From contig CAYXJN010000003.1 of the NCBI GenBank assembly GCA_964464605.1, positions 62,001 to 126,000 on the forward strand: DNA of 64,000 nucleotides, in the 5' to 3' direction. Every line of letters starts with the position of its first letter. Within the stretch, counting starts at the first letter, position 1. This document shows, in pieces, positions 53,816-61,007 of the stretch. Made by a program: the position numbers and the translations under genes. The stretch is from an uncultured Ignavibacteriales bacterium. Its GTDB lineage: Bacteria > Zixibacteria > MSB-5A5 > GN15 > FEB-12. The notes beneath the pieces were generated by a model. It worked only from the letters and a program-made list of their open reading frames with translations. It did not search any database and had not been told where the DNA came from.

Positions 53816-54379
53816 ATGAAAAAACTTTCAATCGCTCTTTTGGTAATGTTAGCAGCATTCGCGTACTGTTCTCTCTGGGCGGATTCCACGCAAACCACGC
53901 CGGCAACGATGGAGATGGGCGCACCGCCGGAAATGAAAGAAGTAGCCTGGATGGTCGGAACTTGGGATGTGGTCAATCAGGAAAAATCACCTACCAGTAC
54001 CGAATGGAAAGAATCAAAAGCAGAATGTGAATTCAGCTATGCGCTTGATGGCGCAGCACTGACGATCAATTATCATGGTCAGTATATGGGAGCGCCGTTT
54101 AACGGCCAGGGGATGCAGTGCTGGGATCGCTTCAACAAACAATGGCAGATGGTCTGGGCGGATGACATGAGCGCGATGATGGTCATGTATACTGGCAAAA
54201 CAGAGGATGGTAAAACAGAGTTTATTGCCAAAACCGACATGATGGGGCACCCCTATTGGGCGCGGATTACCATGTCAAATGTAACTCCGACCAGCTACGA
54301 CTGGACATATGAAGATTCGATGGACGGCGGCAAAACGTGGAATCTGTCTGTCAAATCGAAGTATACGAAGCGGCAGTAA
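53816..54379 (+). CDS. DUF1579-like secreted protein
   Basis: Signal peptide, MVGTWD, PFNGQG, WDRFNKQW..VWADDM, SMDGGKTW. Confidence 0.8.
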   Translation: MKKLSIALLVMLAAFAYCSLWADSTQTTPATMEMGAPPEMKEVAWMVGTWDVVNQEKSPTSTEWKESKAECEFSYALDGAALTINYHGQYMGAPFNGQGMQCWDRFNKQWQMVWADDMSAMMVMYTGKTEDGKTEFIAKTDMMGHPYWARITMSNVTPTSYDWTYEDSMDGGKTWNLSVKSKYTKRQ

Positions 54380-54476: not shown

Positions 54477-55025
54477 ATGTCAAATGATTCTTTCGAATGG
54501 ATAAAATTCATCTCCACTATCGTTGTAATAGGCGGAGGTATCATTGCTGCCTTTAAGGCAATCAGTGAAATGCAGCAAAAACGGCGACAAGAAAACACCG
54601 AGTACAAATGGAAACGAGCGAAAGAGGCATTCGCTATTATCGACGAACTTCTGACAGATCCATTAGCGAGTAAAGCACTCATGATATTGGATTGGAGCCG
54701 TGAACACACATTGCCCGATGGTGCGAAGGTGACTATAGGTGCAAGTGATCTGCCAGGCGCTTTACGAACCTCGGACTTGAGATTCGACGAAAAAGAAATT
54801 TATATCCGAGATTGTTTCGATAGTTTTTTTGGCTATACAGAAAGAATCGAACATGCGCTGCAAATCGATTATGTAGATTTTAACGCGATTAGCTTTCCGC
54901 TTAAGTATTATGTTAAGATCCTCGCCCAAAAAAAACAAAGTATTACTCAATATTTGAACACATATAGCTATACCAGATCACTCGAATTGCTCAATCGATT
55001 CGATAATTGGCAAACGGCTGCATAA
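54477..55025 (+). CDS. Hypothetical protein with N-terminal TM helix
   Basis: AAGGAGG SD, single TM then helical domain; AT-rich. Confidence 0.75.
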   Translation: MSNDSFEWIKFISTIVVIGGGIIAAFKAISEMQQKRRQENTEYKWKRAKEAFAIIDELLTDPLASKALMILDWSREHTLPDGAKVTIGASDLPGALRTSDLRFDEKEIYIRDCFDSFFGYTERIEHALQIDYVDFNAISFPLKYYVKILAQKKQSITQYLNTYSYTRSLELLNRFDNWQTAA

Positions 55026-55810: not shown

Positions 55811-55832
55811 TGGTAGAAGATAGTGATTATGG

Positions 55833-55865
55833 AAATCCGGTTCACGAAAGTGAATCGGATTTTTT
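55833..55865. terminator. Bidirectional terminator
   Basis: AAATCCGGTTCAC-GAAA-GTGAATCGGATTT between convergent genes. Confidence 0.8.
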
Positions 55866-56433
55866 ATTGTTCGATCAATTCCCGAATGCGGTCAGCATCG
55901 ATCGGTAAGCGGGCATCGAACGTAAAGTCCCGCACCTCACCTGACTTCCCGACAATGACCAACAACGGAAAATTCTGAACATGATGCCTGCTCATGAACG
56001 TAAACGCGGTATCGGAATAAACCGGAAACGTCAGATTATTTTTTTTGCGGTAGTACAACACATCATGCGGTTTGTCTGGTGAAATACCGACGACTTTGAC
56101 GTCGGACAATTCGGACACATACGCTCGCTCTAATTTGTCTGTCATCTCTTTACAGGGCGGGCAAGCGAGATCCATAAAGACAACTACGCCACCGGTACCG
56201 GCAAGCAATGATTGCGATTGGACATTTGTGCTCGCTTCATCGATAAGCGCAACATCCGGAAACAGTACGCCCGGTTTTAAGTCTGATTGCGGGGCGTTGG
56301 CGTCGTATTCAGAACTGTTTTCCCCAGTGAGTTTGCTTCCCATACCTAATTTGACGCCAACGAAGGCGGTACCCAGGACAAGCACCATGAAAAGTGCGTA
56401 TTTGAAAAATGAACGGACAGTGAGGTTCGACAT
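55864..56433 (-). CDS. Membrane-anchored thioredoxin-fold redoxin (TlpA/ResA/AhpC-TSA-like), CPPC active site
   Basis: N-terminal TM, LKPG..FPDV.L, FMDLACPPC, VVGISPD, FPVYSD, FP cis-Pro loop. Confidence 0.85.
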   Translation of the reverse strand: MSNLTVRSFFKYALFMVLVLGTAFVGVKLGMGSKLTGENSSEYDANAPQSDLKPGVLFPDVALIDEASTNVQSQSLLAGTGGVVVFMDLACPPCKEMTDKLERAYVSELSDVKVVGISPDKPHDVLYYRKKNNLTFPVYSDTAFTFMSRHHVQNFPLLVIVGKSGEVRDFTFDARLPIDADRIRELIEQ

Positions 56434-56479
56434 ACTGGTATTCCTATGTGCTTAAACGTTCTGTAGTACTCTTATCATG

Positions 56480-56514
56480 AAGGCGGAAAAATCAGAATCC
56501 TTTCTTTCCGCCTT
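56480..56514 (-). other. Hairpin between the peptide array and the redoxin gene
   Basis: AAGGCGGAAA...TTTCCGCCTT, no U-tract on the coding strand. Confidence 0.55.
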
Positions 56515-56561
56515 CCAATCCTTGAACACAATACCTTCCTACTGTGAGGAACAAGTACCGT

Positions 56562-56765
56562 TTAGCAGGTGATAATGGCCAAACACTTAATCTTGCTCGT
56601 CCAAGTGCAGGTAGTAACGCCGTTATTGACACAACAGCGAAGCGGAGCACCGGTGCAAGAACAGGTGTAATAGCAATTTGTGGCTTCGACCTTTTCAGAA
56701 GTCGTAAAGCCGATGGCAAATGCCGCCGCGAAAACGAGTGCAATTGCCGCCAACATCTTTTTCAT
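56562..56765 (-). CDS. Secreted 8-Cys mini-protein, paralog 3
   Basis: GAGGTG SD, MKK signal peptide ending VEA, mature TNCYYTCSCTGAPLRCCVNNGVTTCTWTSKIKCLAIITC. Confidence 0.9.
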   Translation of the reverse strand: MKKMLAAIALVFAAAFAIGFTTSEKVEATNCYYTCSCTGAPLRCCVNNGVTTCTWTSKIKCLAIITC

Positions 56766-56823
56766 GTAATCACCTCATTGTTACAATAGTTCAAAACTCT
56801 ACACTAAGTGAGACTATTCTCCC

Positions 56824-57027
56824 TTAGCACCAGTAGGCCAACGGACATTGGATAACGTTTGTCGGCTTGCAGGTCGTGACGCCATTGTTTACGCAACAAT
56901 ACCGCCCGCCATTACACGGAGTGCAGGTGTAATAACAATTAGCCGCTTCGACTTTACTGTTCGACGTAAAGCCGATGGCAAACGCCGCAGCGAAGACAAA
57001 TGCTAATGTCGCTAATACCTTCTTCAT
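56824..57027 (-). CDS. Secreted 8-Cys mini-protein, paralog 2
   Basis: AAGGAG SD, signal ending VEA, mature ANCYYTCTPCNGGRYCCVNNGVTTCKPTNVIQCPLAYWC. Confidence 0.9.
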   Translation of the reverse strand: MKKVLATLAFVFAAAFAIGFTSNSKVEAANCYYTCTPCNGGRYCCVNNGVTTCKPTNVIQCPLAYWC

Positions 57028-57085
57028 GTAACCATCTCCTTATGATTGGTTAGTGCAAAGTTCTGCTTCATACGGAACCCCCGTT

Positions 57086-57289
57086 TTAGCAGTTGTATAC
57101 CTGCGGACATTCGAATCCGGTAGCTTTCTTACAGGTCGTCACGCCATTATTGACGCAGCAACGAAGCGGCTGGCCCGAACAGGAACAGGTATAGTAGCAG
57201 TTAGCTGCGTCGGCTGTGTTGTTGGAGCTATAGCCAACAGCAAATGAAGCCGCAAAGACAAACGCCATTACGCCCAGCAATTTCTTCAT
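57086..57289 (-). CDS. Secreted 8-Cys mini-protein, paralog 1
   Basis: AAGGAGGTG SD, signal ending ADA, mature ANCYYTCSCSGQPLRCCVNNGVTTCKKATGFECPQVYNC. Confidence 0.9.
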   Translation of the reverse strand: MKKLLGVMAFVFAASFAVGYSSNNTADAANCYYTCSCSGQPLRCCVNNGVTTCKKATGFECPQVYNC

Positions 57290-57499
57290 GATGTTTCACC
57301 TCCTTTCCCGTCTGTAGTCTATGCCCTCCCCCCATTTTCAGGCAAGTTTATTTTCAACTTTGGGTTACAATTGCGATAGAGCGGCACGGTCTAAACCTAT
57401 TGCACTACGGTTTGGTAAAGATTATCTTGTGAACCGAATGGATATGGTAACTGTTTCATTGATAAGAGATTGCATTTCCCCTTCGGGATGGAGGATACT

Positions 57500-58639
57500 A
57501 TGAGTGACGGAATAGACATCAGAGGTTATGACTACGTCGAGTTCTATGTCGGCTCGGCCAAGCAGTGGGCGTATTGGTTTTCCAAGGTCATGGGGCTGGA
57601 AATTACCGCCTATTCCGGACCGGAAACCGGTGTTCGGGATCGGGTCTCCTATTTACTCACCAGCCACCGCCTGAAATTTATCGTTACATCGGCCGTACAG
57701 CCGAACTGCTACGACGTAATGAGTTTCGTGAGCAAACATGGCGACGGCGTCAAGCGTTGGTCAGTAGAAGTTGACAACGTCGAAAAAGCCTTCAAAGCCG
57801 CTACCCGAAACGGAGCGGTGATGGTGACCCGTCCGTACCGGATGGAAGACCACAACGGCTATGTCGAAGAAGCGGCGATCCGGTTGTACGATGACACCGA
57901 AATGGTATATGTCAACCGTTCGAATTATCGTGGCACCTTCCGCCCCCGTTTCTGCAAACCGCTTCAGGAATTCACGACTGATCATCATGAAACCGGGCTT
58001 TTAGCGGTCGACCATGTCGTCGGCAACGTGCGTGAAAATGAAATGAATTTGTGGGCGGATTATTTCAACCGCACCATGAACTTTGAAACGTTTGTTGATT
58101 TCAAGGCAGGCGATATCGGCACCAAATACTCCGCGCTCTTGTCCAAAGTGGTCCGCACCAAGGACAGCGCGATCCGCAATCCGATCAATGAACCGTTCGA
58201 AGGTTTGAAAAAATCGCAGATCGAAGAGTTTATCGAACAGTATCAGGGTTCAGGCGTACAGCACATTGCTATTCGCTCGAACAATATCGTGAAAAGCATC
58301 GAAGCGCTGCGCAAAAACGGCGTGCAGTTTTTAACGGTGCCGGATACGTACTACGACATGCTACGCAAACGCACTGATATGAAAATCAACGAAAATATCG
58401 ACGATTTGCAGCGGGAAGGGATTCTCTGCGATATCGAGGGGAACGGCTACTTATTGCAGCTGTTCACGAAACCGATCGGAGATCGCCCGACCTTTTTCTT
58501 TGAAATTATCCAGCGGGTCGGTGAAAGCCACGGCTTCGGTAAAGGAAACTTTCAGGCATTGTTTGAATCGATTGAACTCGATCAAAAACTGCGCGGGAAC
58601 CTTGAACATAACGCCGAAGAAGTTATGCCCCCGTGTTAA
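57500..58639 (+). CDS. hppD: 4-hydroxyphenylpyruvate dioxygenase
   Basis: DYVEFYVG, KHGDGV, DHVVGNV, KSQIEEF, GVQHIA, LLQLFTKP..DRPTFFFEIIQR, GFGKGNF. Confidence 0.96.
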   Translation: MSDGIDIRGYDYVEFYVGSAKQWAYWFSKVMGLEITAYSGPETGVRDRVSYLLTSHRLKFIVTSAVQPNCYDVMSFVSKHGDGVKRWSVEVDNVEKAFKAATRNGAVMVTRPYRMEDHNGYVEEAAIRLYDDTEMVYVNRSNYRGTFRPRFCKPLQEFTTDHHETGLLAVDHVVGNVRENEMNLWADYFNRTMNFETFVDFKAGDIGTKYSALLSKVVRTKDSAIRNPINEPFEGLKKSQIEEFIEQYQGSGVQHIAIRSNNIVKSIEALRKNGVQFLTVPDTYYDMLRKRTDMKINENIDDLQREGILCDIEGNGYLLQLFTKPIGDRPTFFFEIIQRVGESHGFGKGNFQALFESIELDQKLRGNLEHNAEEVMPPC

Positions 58640-58668
58640 GCAGCAAAAAAAGTCAGGAGGAATAAAAT

Positions 58669-59850
58669 ATGCCGTTTTATCATCGTTTAGGCGAAATGCC
58701 GCGGGTGAAGCATACCACCTTCTACAAGAAGGATGGGCAGTCCCTCTACCGCGAAGAATTGTTCTCCAGCAAAGGTTTTTCCGGAGTCTATTCAAATAAA
58801 TACTGGATTCATCCCCCGACTCAGGTGCTCAGTGCTAAAGAAATCGGCAATGCGCCGAATGTCGACTGGCCCGATGCGCCAGTGCTGTATTTCCATTTTT
58901 TCACCGATGAATTGAAATCCGGTGGTAACTTTATCAACGGCCGCAATACCTTCTTGCGTAACCCGCACTGTGTTATTGCAACAGCTATCGTGACGGAAGA
59001 TACACCTGATTTTTATCGCAATGCCTATGGCAGCGAATATGTGTTCGTGCATCATGGTACCGGCACATTCATGAGTGAGTTCGGCCACATTCCGTTCGAG
59101 CCGGGTGACCAGTTTATTATTCCCCGTGCGGTCACTTATCAATTCAAATTTGATGACTACAAGAGCCGCAATAAGCTGGTGTTCGTTGAATCTGACACTG
59201 CCTACGAAATTCCCGCCCGCTACCGTAACGAATACGGTCAGCTTGAGGAACACGCGCCGTATTGCGAACGTGATCTGAAAGTTCCGCAGGAGCTTCGTCC
59301 GCATGAAGAACATGGCGAGTTCCGGGTAATTGTCAAAGCCGGCAGCAAGCTGTTCGAGCATATCGTCCCGAATCACCCCTACGGCGTGGTCGGTTGGGAT
59401 GGATTCTTATATCCGTTTGCGCTGAATATTCGGGATTATCATCCGAAAGTCGGGCGTATTCACCTTCCGCCGCCGACGCACCTGTGCTTCAAGACGGCGC
59501 ATTTTATTATCTGTAATTTCGTGCCGCGTCCGTACGACTTTTATCCGACCGCTATTCCGGCTCCGTACTATCACTCCAATATCGACAGTGATGAAGTGCT
59601 GTACTACGTCGAAGGGGACTTTATGTCCCGTACCGGCGTGAAAGAAGGTTCGATTACCCTGCATCCGGGCGGCATGCCCCACGGTCCGCAGCCGGGACGC
59701 ACCGAGGCCTCTATCGGCGCCAAAGAGACGAATGAATTCGCCCTAATGATCGACACCTATGCCCCGCTGCGTCCGACTATCAACGTCCAGAAGACATTGG
59801 ATAAAGGATACGCGCAGTCATGGCTCGACAAAGAAATGGTTCGCGTTTAA
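58669..59850 (+). CDS. hmgA: Homogentisate 1,2-dioxygenase
   Basis: VVGWDG, IHLPPPTH, FVPR, PYYHSNIDSDEVLYY, TLHPGGMPHGPQPG. Confidence 0.95.
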   Translation: MPFYHRLGEMPRVKHTTFYKKDGQSLYREELFSSKGFSGVYSNKYWIHPPTQVLSAKEIGNAPNVDWPDAPVLYFHFFTDELKSGGNFINGRNTFLRNPHCVIATAIVTEDTPDFYRNAYGSEYVFVHHGTGTFMSEFGHIPFEPGDQFIIPRAVTYQFKFDDYKSRNKLVFVESDTAYEIPARYRNEYGQLEEHAPYCERDLKVPQELRPHEEHGEFRVIVKAGSKLFEHIVPNHPYGVVGWDGFLYPFALNIRDYHPKVGRIHLPPPTHLCFKTAHFIICNFVPRPYDFYPTAIPAPYYHSNIDSDEVLYYVEGDFMSRTGVKEGSITLHPGGMPHGPQPGRTEASIGAKETNEFALMIDTYAPLRPTINVQKTLDKGYAQSWLDKEMVRV

Positions 59851-61007
59851 TGACTGATAGGCCCCAAAAACCGGTGAAGGCTCCGGGGTATATTGAAAAC
59901 CTCGTTCCCTACAAAGCTGGCAAACCGATTTCGGAACTCAAGCGGGAAAAAGGACTGAAAGATGTCGTCAAACTCGCTTCGAACGAAAATCCGTTTGGGC
60001 CGTCGCCAAAGGCAACAGCGGCGATGCAAGATGCCTTGAGCAATTTGCATCGCTACGTCAACCCCTCCGCACCGGAATTGGTCGAAGCAATCGCCAACAA
60101 GTACGGCAAAAAGCGCTCGGAAGTTATAACCGGCGCCGGTACCGATTCCTTGTTAGCAGACATTATTATCGCGTTTTCGGAAGCTGACGATGAAGTGCTG
60201 ACTTCGGAGGGCACCTTTATCGGTATTTATGTCAGCGCGAACAAACTCGGCCGAAAATTGGTCACGGTTCCACTGAATCATTACCGGTTTGATTTGGATG
60301 CGCTTGCCAATGCGATCACCGACCGAACCCGTATTATCTTTTTAGCCAACCCGAACAACCCGACCGGCACAATGTTCACCAAAACGCAGTTTGAGCAATT
60401 CATGGCCAAAGTGCCGGGGAATGTGGTAGTTATCCTTGATGAAGCGTATTTCGAATACGCGCAGTGGCATCCGGATTATCCGAATGGACTCACTTACGAT
60501 TACCCGAACCTGCTCGTCACGCGCACACTTTCCAAAGCATACGGCCTCGCCGGAGTACGACTTGGTATTGCGCTCGGAAACGAAAAACTGATTAGTTATC
60601 TCTATCGCGTCAAACTCCCTTTTGAACCGAACGGGATGGCGCAAGCCGCCGGAGTTGCCGCGCTTGATGACGATGCGTTCGTTACAAAAACGCTCAAGCA
60701 GAATGAAAAGTCGCTGCAGAAGATGACCGATCATTTTCGGATGATGGGAATCCCGCAGATTGACACGGTCGCAAATTTCGTGTTGTTATTGTTTCCTTCA
60801 ACCGAATTTGCGAAAGCATTTTACGAAGAATGTCTCAATCGCGGATTGATTGTCCGCCATGTCGATACGTTTAAGATTCCCAACGGTATCCGCATCAATT
60901 CCGGGACCGATAAAGAGACCGATTTTGCCTTGCAGGTAATCGATGATGTATACATGCTTTTATGCAAACGATTCAATATCGAATTAGCAGGAACAGCCGC
61001 ACGATAA
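59850..61007 (+). CDS. hisC: HisC-family aminotransferase (likely aromatic amino-acid aminotransferase in this context)
   Basis: KLASNENPFGPS, ANPNNPTG, LDEAY, RTLSKAYGLAGVRLG; ATG overlaps the hmgA stop. Confidence 0.88.
   Translation: MTDRPQKPVKAPGYIENLVPYKAGKPISELKREKGLKDVVKLASNENPFGPSPKATAAMQDALSNLHRYVNPSAPELVEAIANKYGKKRSEVITGAGTDSLLADIIIAFSEADDEVLTSEGTFIGIYVSANKLGRKLVTVPLNHYRFDLDALANAITDRTRIIFLANPNNPTGTMFTKTQFEQFMAKVPGNVVVILDEAYFEYAQWHPDYPNGLTYDYPNLLVTRTLSKAYGLAGVRLGIALGNEKLISYLYRVKLPFEPNGMAQAAGVAALDDDAFVTKTLKQNEKSLQKMTDHFRMMGIPQIDTVANFVLLLFPSTEFAKAFYEECLNRGLIVRHVDTFKIPNGIRINSGTDKETDFALQVIDDVYMLLCKRFNIELAGTAAR

Follow-up and report, generated by a model that had tools for sequence, protein, structure and literature searches.

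How could several disulfides be set correctly in small exported peptides by a bacterium in which none of the canonical DsbA, DsbB or VKOR proteins is found, and what part might a dedicated thioredoxin-like protein play? The question is raised by a locus in a 64,000-nucleotide stretch of DNA (hereafter the window; contig CAYXJN010000003.1, positions 62,001 to 126,000 of the forward strand, assembly GCA_964464605.1) from an uncultured Ignavibacteriales bacterium placed by GTDB in the Zixibacteria. On the minus strand of the window, three tandem genes for short precursors with eight cysteines each are followed by a gene for a membrane-anchored thioredoxin-fold protein, which we call the redoxin. 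We propose that these genes encode Sec-exported mini-proteins with four disulfides and that their own redoxin folds or proofreads them, a reading to which we assign a probability of about 0.58. Coordinates given without a genome prefix are those of the window.

The peptide genes lie at 57086-57289 (gene 1), 56824-57027 (gene 2) and 56562-56765 (gene 3), all on the minus strand, and repeat with a period of 262 bp, leaving spacers of 58 bp each (57028-57085 and 56766-56823). Reading the same strand upstream of each start codon revealed Shine-Dalgarno (SD)-like sites, namely AAGGAGGTG at 57297-57305 for gene 1, AAGGAGA at 57035-57041 for gene 2 and GAGGTG at 56771-56776 for gene 3, all located 6-8 nt upstream of the respective ATG. 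Every gene encodes a 67-residue precursor, the alignment of which shows an N-terminus (M1-A28) made up of MKK, a hydrophobic core and an A/V-x-A end (A-D-A in peptide 1), as predicted for a 28-residue Sec-type signal. This is followed by a 39-residue mature part with eight cysteines in the arrangement C-x3-C-x1/2-C-x6/5-CC-x7-C-x7-C-x5-C, the last of which is the final residue. The segments CYYTC and CCVNNGVTTC are invariant across the three peptides, and peptides 2 and 3 share 55-57% identity with peptide 1, which itself matches the family profile at 1.8e-35. Peptide 2 represents a variant type (T-P-C-N-G-G-R-Y-CC) to which both copies at a metagenome locus, L013, also belong. The genome that contains the window has no peptide copies beyond these three.

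These open reading frames (ORFs) are real genes and not chance frames. Between paralogues, synonymous differences are saturated (pS 0.70-0.90) whereas non-synonymous differences are few (pN 0.25-0.28), which indicates old duplicates under purifying selection as opposed to copies amplified recently. Contigs of a related strain from one public run carry 22 base changes across the three peptide genes that alter only 3 residues, and all five of their indels (5/5) fall in the spacers; a 63-kb contig, from a run excluded as a candidate source of this assembly, spans the whole stretch with 11 differences. A preliminary description of this DNA, made from the letters alone, had reported the three 67-codon genes with their repeat period, spacers and SD sites as well as the signal and eight-cysteine tail with its two identical segments, all of which the sequence, the ORF list and the alignment confirm. 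The same description called the peptide set diversified, which holds in a limited sense only: the copies are old and under purifying selection, with no positive selection visible. Two related-strain contigs from a run whose kind we guess to be RNA (X20) cover only 56511-57299, thus including the three peptide genes and ending inside the 5′ arm of the hairpin described below, with the redoxin gene and the promoter region outside their coverage. As X20 is a single run of uncertain kind, we draw no conclusion from it on transcription or on whether a transcript ends at the hairpin.

The peptide family is rare and undescribed. Pfam returned only DUF6520 (PF20130) at 17.2, 17.4 and 15.4 bits for the three peptides, below the gathering cut-off of 25.4, and 0 matches to this family exceeded the cut-off among the 151 genomes of the class. 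Six of nine weak DUF6520 matches cover just profile positions 1 to 31-55 and sit in open frames of 136-786 residues, and this restriction to the profile start in long frames makes them look like signal-peptide noise. We rejected membership in DUF6520 since the peptides score under the cut-off and no match in the class lies above it. NCBIfam yielded only a signal-peptide-like Phr N-terminal match below cut-off, the best hit of a profile sequence search against the PDB had an E-value of 0.35, PADLOC and PHROGs hold no family for the peptides, Rfam gave no match of note, and tblastn against plasmids and phages recovered no peptide copy. Limited literature searches, with supplementary files outside their scope, found no description of the family.

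Relatives do exist in sequence collections and environmental genomes. A word-indexed search of 5.8 billion clusters retrieved 6 relatives, and a profile search of 1.84 billion representatives retrieved 48 proteins at E<=0.001, 23 of them at E<=1e-10. These 48 are mostly precursors of 63-117 residues built on the same plan, C-[YF]-x-x-C-x-C-x-G-x-P-[LIV]-x-CC ... C-K ... C-P-Q-x-x-x-C, the departures being two proteins with repeats, a single chimera and some entries that are marginal or truncated. In a survey of the phylum, 51 of 285 genomes contained a peptide match at E<=0.001 and 30 of 285 a full-length match at E<1e-19, and a metagenome profile scan based on a nine-sequence alignment added 2 loci. 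Related records are labelled Ignavibacteriales or, for one more distant copy, Candidatus Eiseniibacteriota, and a second genome of the latter phylum also contains a copy. Three copies are found in the window, at least two at L013, two each at L022 and L023, and one elsewhere. Variation within the family is concentrated in the loop between Cys6 and Cys7, and conserved positions other than cysteine include Y4, Y5, G, P and I/F, with no conserved His or Met.

Two simple assignments were tried and rejected. Net charge ranges from -5 to +3 and the family is therefore not uniformly cationic, which rejects a cationic membrane-active antimicrobial peptide as a family-wide property. Lipoproteins were rejected because the first cysteine lies 11 residues past the hydrophobic core and is preceded by A-N, without a lipobox. 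Some members also differ in architecture: P0006 and P0021 (110-114 residues) contain an Ala/Glu/Pro-rich insert of ~45 residues between signal peptide and cysteine domain, and many others have a poly-Gly linker at this position.

With family alignments as input, AlphaFold2 (AF2) predicted three strands that form a sheet, with a C-terminal loop after them (pLDDT 80 and 82, the latter for the mature part), and no helix in the mature part of the models. Neither the whole precursor nor the mature model gave a Foldseek match in the PDB at E<=0.001; the best rows, which were not significant, were fibronectin type I modules (E ~2-3, TMq 0.55-0.58). The best Z-scores in two wide VIA-align searches were likewise non-significant (2.5 and 3.1), with 4Fe-4S N-terminal domains of Mo-enzymes as top rows (Z 2.6-3.1), and the ESM Atlas returned a best feature score of 0.81 to unnamed clusters of 66-71 residues, which we treat as a lead only. 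The lack of a significant structural match does not show that the predicted fold is new. Together with the sub-threshold Pfam and NCBIfam scores, the missing sequence and fold matches in the PDB bear out the initial impression that the peptides belong to no characterised family.

Directly downstream of peptide gene 3 and in the same orientation lies the redoxin gene (55864-56433, minus strand), the presence of which as a co-oriented, membrane-anchored CPPC gene had been noted before and is verified by the ORF, its Pfam matches and the sequence. Its 189-residue product is a TlpA/ResA/StoA-like thioredoxin-fold protein according to Pfam, NCBIfam, PDB and an alignment of 27 orthologues. It has a single N-terminal hydrophobic segment, the membrane anchor at about residues 11-29 (56347-56403), and its CPPC active site occupies residues 91-94 (56152-56163). 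In Pfam, it matches AhpC-TSA (49.8 bits, 4e-13, cut-off 26), Thioredoxin_8 (40.6 bits, 3.3e-10, cut-off 27) and Redoxin (31.7 bits, 1.6e-07, cut-off 26.6), and the best PDB sequence match is StoA of Bacillus subtilis (3erw, E 2.3e-6). It falls far below the cut-offs of the NCBIfam models for ResA or StoA proper (NF002854, NF041202), with 28.6 versus 170 bits for ResA and 30.4 versus 210 for StoA. Orthologues have 184-200 residues and carry CPPC in 25 of 26 distinct sequences (CDPC in 1/26). A hydrophobic N-terminus is found in 27/27 aligned orthologues, and C91, P93, C94 and P156 are invariant, the last of which is probably the cis-proline judging from its position. The residue before this putative cis-proline is Phe or Tyr, and the third residue after the CxxC motif is a nearly invariant Met.

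The pairing of peptide and redoxin genes is retained across relatives, as the preliminary description had anticipated. A redoxin homologue was detected by tblastn directly downstream and on the same strand at 31 of 33 distinct peptide places, a count derived from 33/35 loci by adding L052 and removing the repeats L008, L015 and L021 (equal to L004, L005 and L006). The two places without it, L034 and L041, lie at contig ends, with 217 and 45 bases of sequence left after the peptide gene. The reverse test, in which a redoxin profile was run against the 285 genomes of the phylum, separated 31 genomes scoring at least 182 bits from a next best score of 148; a full-length peptide match is present in 30 genomes, and these include 29 of the 31. 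In G145, the peptide genome outside this redoxin group, the contig ends just past the peptide gene. Below the gap is a group of paralogous redoxins at 123-148 bits, comprising G053:C1:37167-37718, proteins of ten other genomes of the same genus (g81), and those of G048 and G057; no peptide gene adjoins them at the two places checked (L064, L065). A further curiosity is P0046 (98 residues), which combines a redoxin-like N-terminus (membrane anchor, F-P-E) with a peptide-like C-terminal half (L-Y-CC ... C-P-Q-V-Y-N-C), and which may be an assembly chimera or the product of a deletion that fused the two genes in reverse order.

The genes surrounding the pair change between genera and include Mfd, inositol monophosphatase with PGM, acyl-CoA dehydrogenase with HypF, glutamate dehydrogenase, GH57, a short-chain dehydrogenase/reductase and ArsP. 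In the flanks of 14 loci from different genera, no transporter, immunity, regulator or modifying-enzyme gene is conserved beside the pair, in line with the earlier observation that RiPP enzymes (RiPP, ribosomally synthesised and post-translationally modified peptide) and peptidase transporters are absent next to the array. With variable flanks and a constant pair, the conserved unit consists of the peptide gene or genes plus the redoxin. This bears on the idea that the two are neighbours and not partners, the redoxin belonging to another pathway such as the maturation of cytochrome c or a copper centre and merely sharing a transcription unit. TlpA/ResA-like proteins usually serve such pathways, and two genomes have a redoxin without an adjacent peptide gene. 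We nevertheless give this idea little credence, as it sits poorly with a pair kept at nearly all places despite changing flanks, with the overlap of peptide and high-scoring redoxin genomes, with scanned flanks that hold no genes for cytochrome c maturation or copper centres, and with the low ResA score of the window redoxin.

Between peptide gene 3 and the redoxin gene, the 128-nt gap contains a stem-loop with a 13-bp stem at ~56479-56515 (minus strand). The folding energy of the gap is -35.7 kcal/mol (z -2.8; 3/200 shuffles fold as well), and the fold upholds the initial report of a hairpin without a U-run. Long GC-rich stem-loops occupy the same place in 22 of 22 other loci, as judged by eye with no shuffle control; their sequences differ and several are followed by U-runs. 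We regard the inter-gene stem-loop as a candidate attenuator or 3′-end stabiliser. Such hairpins between small ORFs and a redoxin gene, in the window and at the 22 loci folded, are also what would be expected if the ORFs were cysteine-rich leader peptides acting in cis, sensing cysteine supply and controlling the redoxin by attenuation, as poly-Cys attenuator ORFs do in mycobacteria. This explanation is hardly credible given purifying selection over all 67 residues, signal peptide and non-cysteine residues included, three copies that each have an SD site, and a predicted fold conserved across the family. The preliminary description further placed a terminator after the redoxin gene, which was not upheld: the stem-loop at 55831-55864, shared with a convergent glyoxalase-family gene, passes the terminator scan on the plus strand only, where it ends that gene, whereas on the minus strand it forms a stem of -13.4 kcal/mol (z -4.0) with no U-run after it.

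The numbers of cysteines bear on the state in which they occur. All 33 distinct mature peptides from the loci have eight cysteines, and 32 of the 33 end on one. Across 46 proteins (P0001-P0047 minus the chimera P0046), the mature part contains eight cysteines in 42, six in two, ten in one and seven in one, and 20/20 further relatives in neighbouring genomes have an even number in the ORF. Four proteins with six cysteines (P0044, P0045, P0051 and P0053) lack exactly Cys3 and Cys8 in every case (4/4), a joint loss that is expected if these two residues form a disulfide. Cysteine parity and paired loss point to disulfides that include a Cys3-Cys8 bond, and so lend support to the disulfide pairing that had been suggested from the window alone.

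The same numbers weigh on the notion that the peptides are RiPP precursors with cysteine-rich cores modified, for instance by thioethers, by enzymes encoded elsewhere. Short cysteine-rich precursors are indeed typical of sactipeptides and ranthipeptides. Apart from the even-cysteine rule, however, the leader is a predicted Sec signal with an A-x-A site and not a RiPP leader, and no radical S-adenosylmethionine (SAM) maturase or other modifying enzyme is found beside the precursor genes at the 14 loci or in the window. We consider this notion slightly less plausible still than that of unrelated neighbours.

The window genome, which is 100% complete by marker genes, has no match to DsbA (PF01323), Thioredoxin_4 (PF13462), DsbB (PF02600) or VKOR (PF07884), and it contains two DsbD_TM (DsbD/CcdA-type) matches, one of them within a 722-residue ORF. 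Of the 108 genomes in this taxonomic family, 11 contained VKOR and 1 contained DsbB, and of the 15 with a full-length peptide match, 6 have VKOR and 9 neither VKOR nor DsbB; the genomes are related and not independent, and no statistics were drawn from these counts. VKOR matches in family f1 (e.g. G091:C2:1286610-1286954) lie in open frames of 604-685 residues at 10/12 places, which suggests that VKOR is fused to other domains there.

This background leaves room for the main rival to our proposal, in which the redoxin, fed by DsbD or CcdA, keeps the peptides reduced, and these act as binders of metals or metalloids (Cu, Zn, As), as a thiol buffer or as an electron relay. The two DsbD_TM proteins in a genome with no detectable DsbA, DsbB or VKOR speak for it, as do the C-x-C and CC motifs, which are reminiscent of metallothioneins, and the non-significant VIA rows with 4Fe-4S domains. 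A CPPC motif in a StoA-like scaffold is expected to have a low potential, the value for StoA being -248 mV in the excerpted text of PMC2665060. Even cysteine numbers and the joint Cys3/Cys8 loss nevertheless fit pairs better than ligand sets, the conserved aromatic and hydrophobic positions and the confident three-strand model suggest a folded core, and there is no conserved His or Met. Moreover, Sec export delivers an unfolded, cofactor-free chain. On balance, we judge a thiol state to be rather unlikely.

More distant relatives extend the family. The weaker matches in related genomes are six-cysteine proteins (C-x3-C ... CC ... C ... C) that often form tandem arrays. At least five copies are present in G102 (L054, G102:C1:1878500-1885800), where genes for a DUF1028-TPR protein (Ntn-hydrolase-like DUF1028 joined to tetratricopeptide repeats, TPR) and for a redoxin with a CEPC motif lie inside the array; an array in G104 (L056, G104:C1:439500-446000) has the same layout with a CQPC redoxin, and three copies in G040 (L053, G040:C1:4378500-4383500) are adjoined by a CDPC redoxin and an ABC-2 permease.

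Based on these findings, we favour the following course of events for four-disulfide mini-proteins served by their own redoxin. The three precursors would be exported by Sec and cut by signal peptidase I after A/V-x-A, as their sequences suggest, releasing 39-residue mini-proteins predicted to be all-beta. Their eight cysteines would form four disulfides, among them a Cys3-Cys8 bond that, going by parity and paired loss, ties the C-terminal residue to the first strand. The redoxin, presumably located in the same compartment, would act on the peptides, most likely as a low-potential disulfide isomerase or reductase that proofreads pairings and receives electrons from a DsbD/CcdA-type membrane protein; we favour this role over that of a net oxidase. 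The stem-loop may let the peptide message accumulate far above that of the enzyme, a design familiar from lantibiotic operons, which express the structural genes at much higher levels than the enzyme. As a first guess, the folded peptide could resist proteases and bind a specific target, serving as an inhibitor or in competition; general membrane activity of a cationic peptide is less likely. Disulfide state, redox direction, export beyond the periplasm and any activity are properties that we infer.

Several observations weigh against this proposal. The closest characterised kin of the redoxin, StoA and ResA, act as reductants, and the enzyme could accordingly hold the cysteines in the reduced state instead of helping them to pair; no re-oxidising partner was found in the window genome. 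The Met in place of the recognition glutamate of ResA and StoA, discussed below, indicates that the redoxin is not a plain member of either. The AF2 model does not separate disulfides from metal sites. The organism, which we take to be diderm, has no evident route across the outer membrane. As for the pairing, G089 (58% complete) encodes a redoxin that lacks an adjacent peptide gene and begins 20 nt after a glutamate-dehydrogenase-like gene, and G034 (76% complete) has a high-scoring redoxin with a CEPC motif and no peptide gene upstream. Finally, no redoxin lies within ~1.5 kb of the single six-cysteine genes of G090, G093 and G099; these genomes carry the eight-cysteine pair elsewhere.

Taken together, the compact operon exporting disulfide-locked peptides with their own redoxin, as envisaged in the preliminary description, gains support from the pairing, the absence of a known family and the cysteine parity. 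A more far-reaching interpretation is tentative and, in our view, more doubtful than probable: the locus may represent a private oxidative-folding module of bacteria of the Fibrobacteres-Chlorobi-Bacteroidetes (FCB) group that lack DsbA, DsbB and VKOR, in which a low-potential TlpA-like isomerase or oxidase would serve a new C-C-C-CC-C-C-C family of four-disulfide mini-proteins with a Cys3-Cys8 staple and an all-beta fold that has no assignment. The six-cysteine kin, with their arrays of at least five genes and their divergent redoxins, would be included, and the whole would be a bacterial counterpart of eukaryotic toxin and defensin families whose members would be diffusible inhibitors or weapons among sludge and soil microbes.

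The locus is flanked in the window by the glyoxalase-family gene and by a gene resembling 4-hydroxyphenylpyruvate dioxygenase (HPPD). The latter, a two-domain glyoxalase-fold protein (57470-58639, plus strand), is the first of three genes that are divergent from the array and resemble tyrosine catabolism (57470-61007, plus strand), followed by a weak match to homogentisate 1,2-dioxygenase (58669-59850, plus strand) and a class I/II aminotransferase (59820-61007, plus strand). Upstream of the glyoxalase-family gene are a 182-residue ORF without a Pfam family (54477-55025, plus strand) and a gene for a secreted-looking DUF1579 protein (53816-54379, plus strand).

The peptide family and its six-cysteine relatives represent a class of small genes that lacks annotation in Ignavibacteria-type genomes obtained from sludge and soil metagenomes. 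With two gene types in about 1.4 kb, the module should be easy to move into an expression host, and should the redoxin prove to be an isomerase or oxidase specific for its substrate, it might become a tool for producing disulfide-rich peptides. The 39-residue scaffold with its hypervariable Cys6-Cys7 loop could likewise serve as a natural binder framework.

Among known systems, bacteriocin loci of Firmicutes are similar in that an exported ribosomal cysteine peptide is encoded beside a CxxC thioredoxin-fold protein thought to set its disulfides. Sublancin 168 is reportedly accompanied by BdbA/BdbB in this way, and PedC of the pediocin system is a further dedicated thiol-disulfide oxidoreductase. 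The thermophilin 13 cluster is another bacteriocin locus with its own thiol-disulfide oxidoreductase, as described in an excerpt of PMC10059821. Such loci occur in monoderm hosts and combine peptides that have one or two disulfides and a leader of the double-glycine or another type with genes for an ATP-binding cassette (ABC) transporter/peptidase, immunity and regulation. In contrast, the window system has a Sec signal, probably four disulfides, a TlpA/StoA-type enzyme, an FCB-group host and no other conserved gene. Its peptides show no sequence similarity to Firmicute bacteriocins, and their Sec-type N-terminus, together with the absence of transporter/peptidase and immunity genes at the 14 loci and in the window, sets them apart from class II bacteriocins and sublancin-type peptides. 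To our knowledge, it is rare for a bacterial peptide exported by Sec to contain four disulfides.

Bacterial cis-defensins and eukaryotic four-disulfide mini-proteins are also small, secreted and cysteine-rich, and form gene families with a conserved signal peptide and cysteine framework. The cis-defensin pattern C-X(2,18)-C-X3-C-X(2,12)-C-X(4,17)-C-X-C (PMC11561630), characteristic of the CS-alpha-beta type, was found in none of the 33 mature peptides and in none of the 43 precursors; in cis-defensins a helix is stapled to a beta-sheet, whereas the model of the window peptide, as a prediction, is helix-free.

The enzyme finds its closest comparison in StoA and ResA, with which it shares the thioredoxin fold, the N-terminal anchor and the putative cis-proline, as well as the CPPC motif with StoA. 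The available portion of PMC2665060 describes StoA as a membrane-anchored protein whose electrons are believed to come from CcdA and whose action is taken to be reductive. A glutamate three residues after CxxC (Glu80 in ResA, Glu71 in StoA) is important for substrate recognition according to part of PMC5909903; the window redoxin differs in having Met at this position and in being coupled to a peptide gene; neither StoA nor ResA is known to have such a coupling. HP0377, a CcmG-family protein with isomerase activity, also has a hydrophobic residue three places after CxxC (PMC5909903, same excerpt). In our working model, the redoxin would resemble the pairs DsbD-DsbC and CcdA-HP0377, in which electrons pass from a reducing membrane protein to a CxxC protein of the periplasm, and the latter reshuffles wrongly paired disulfides. 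DsbC and HP0377 have many substrates and are not encoded beside a single substrate family, and the isomerase role of the window protein is putative. A peptide with a dedicated thiol-disulfide oxidoreductase was thus already known, and what the present locus adds is the peptide family and its pairing with the redoxin gene.

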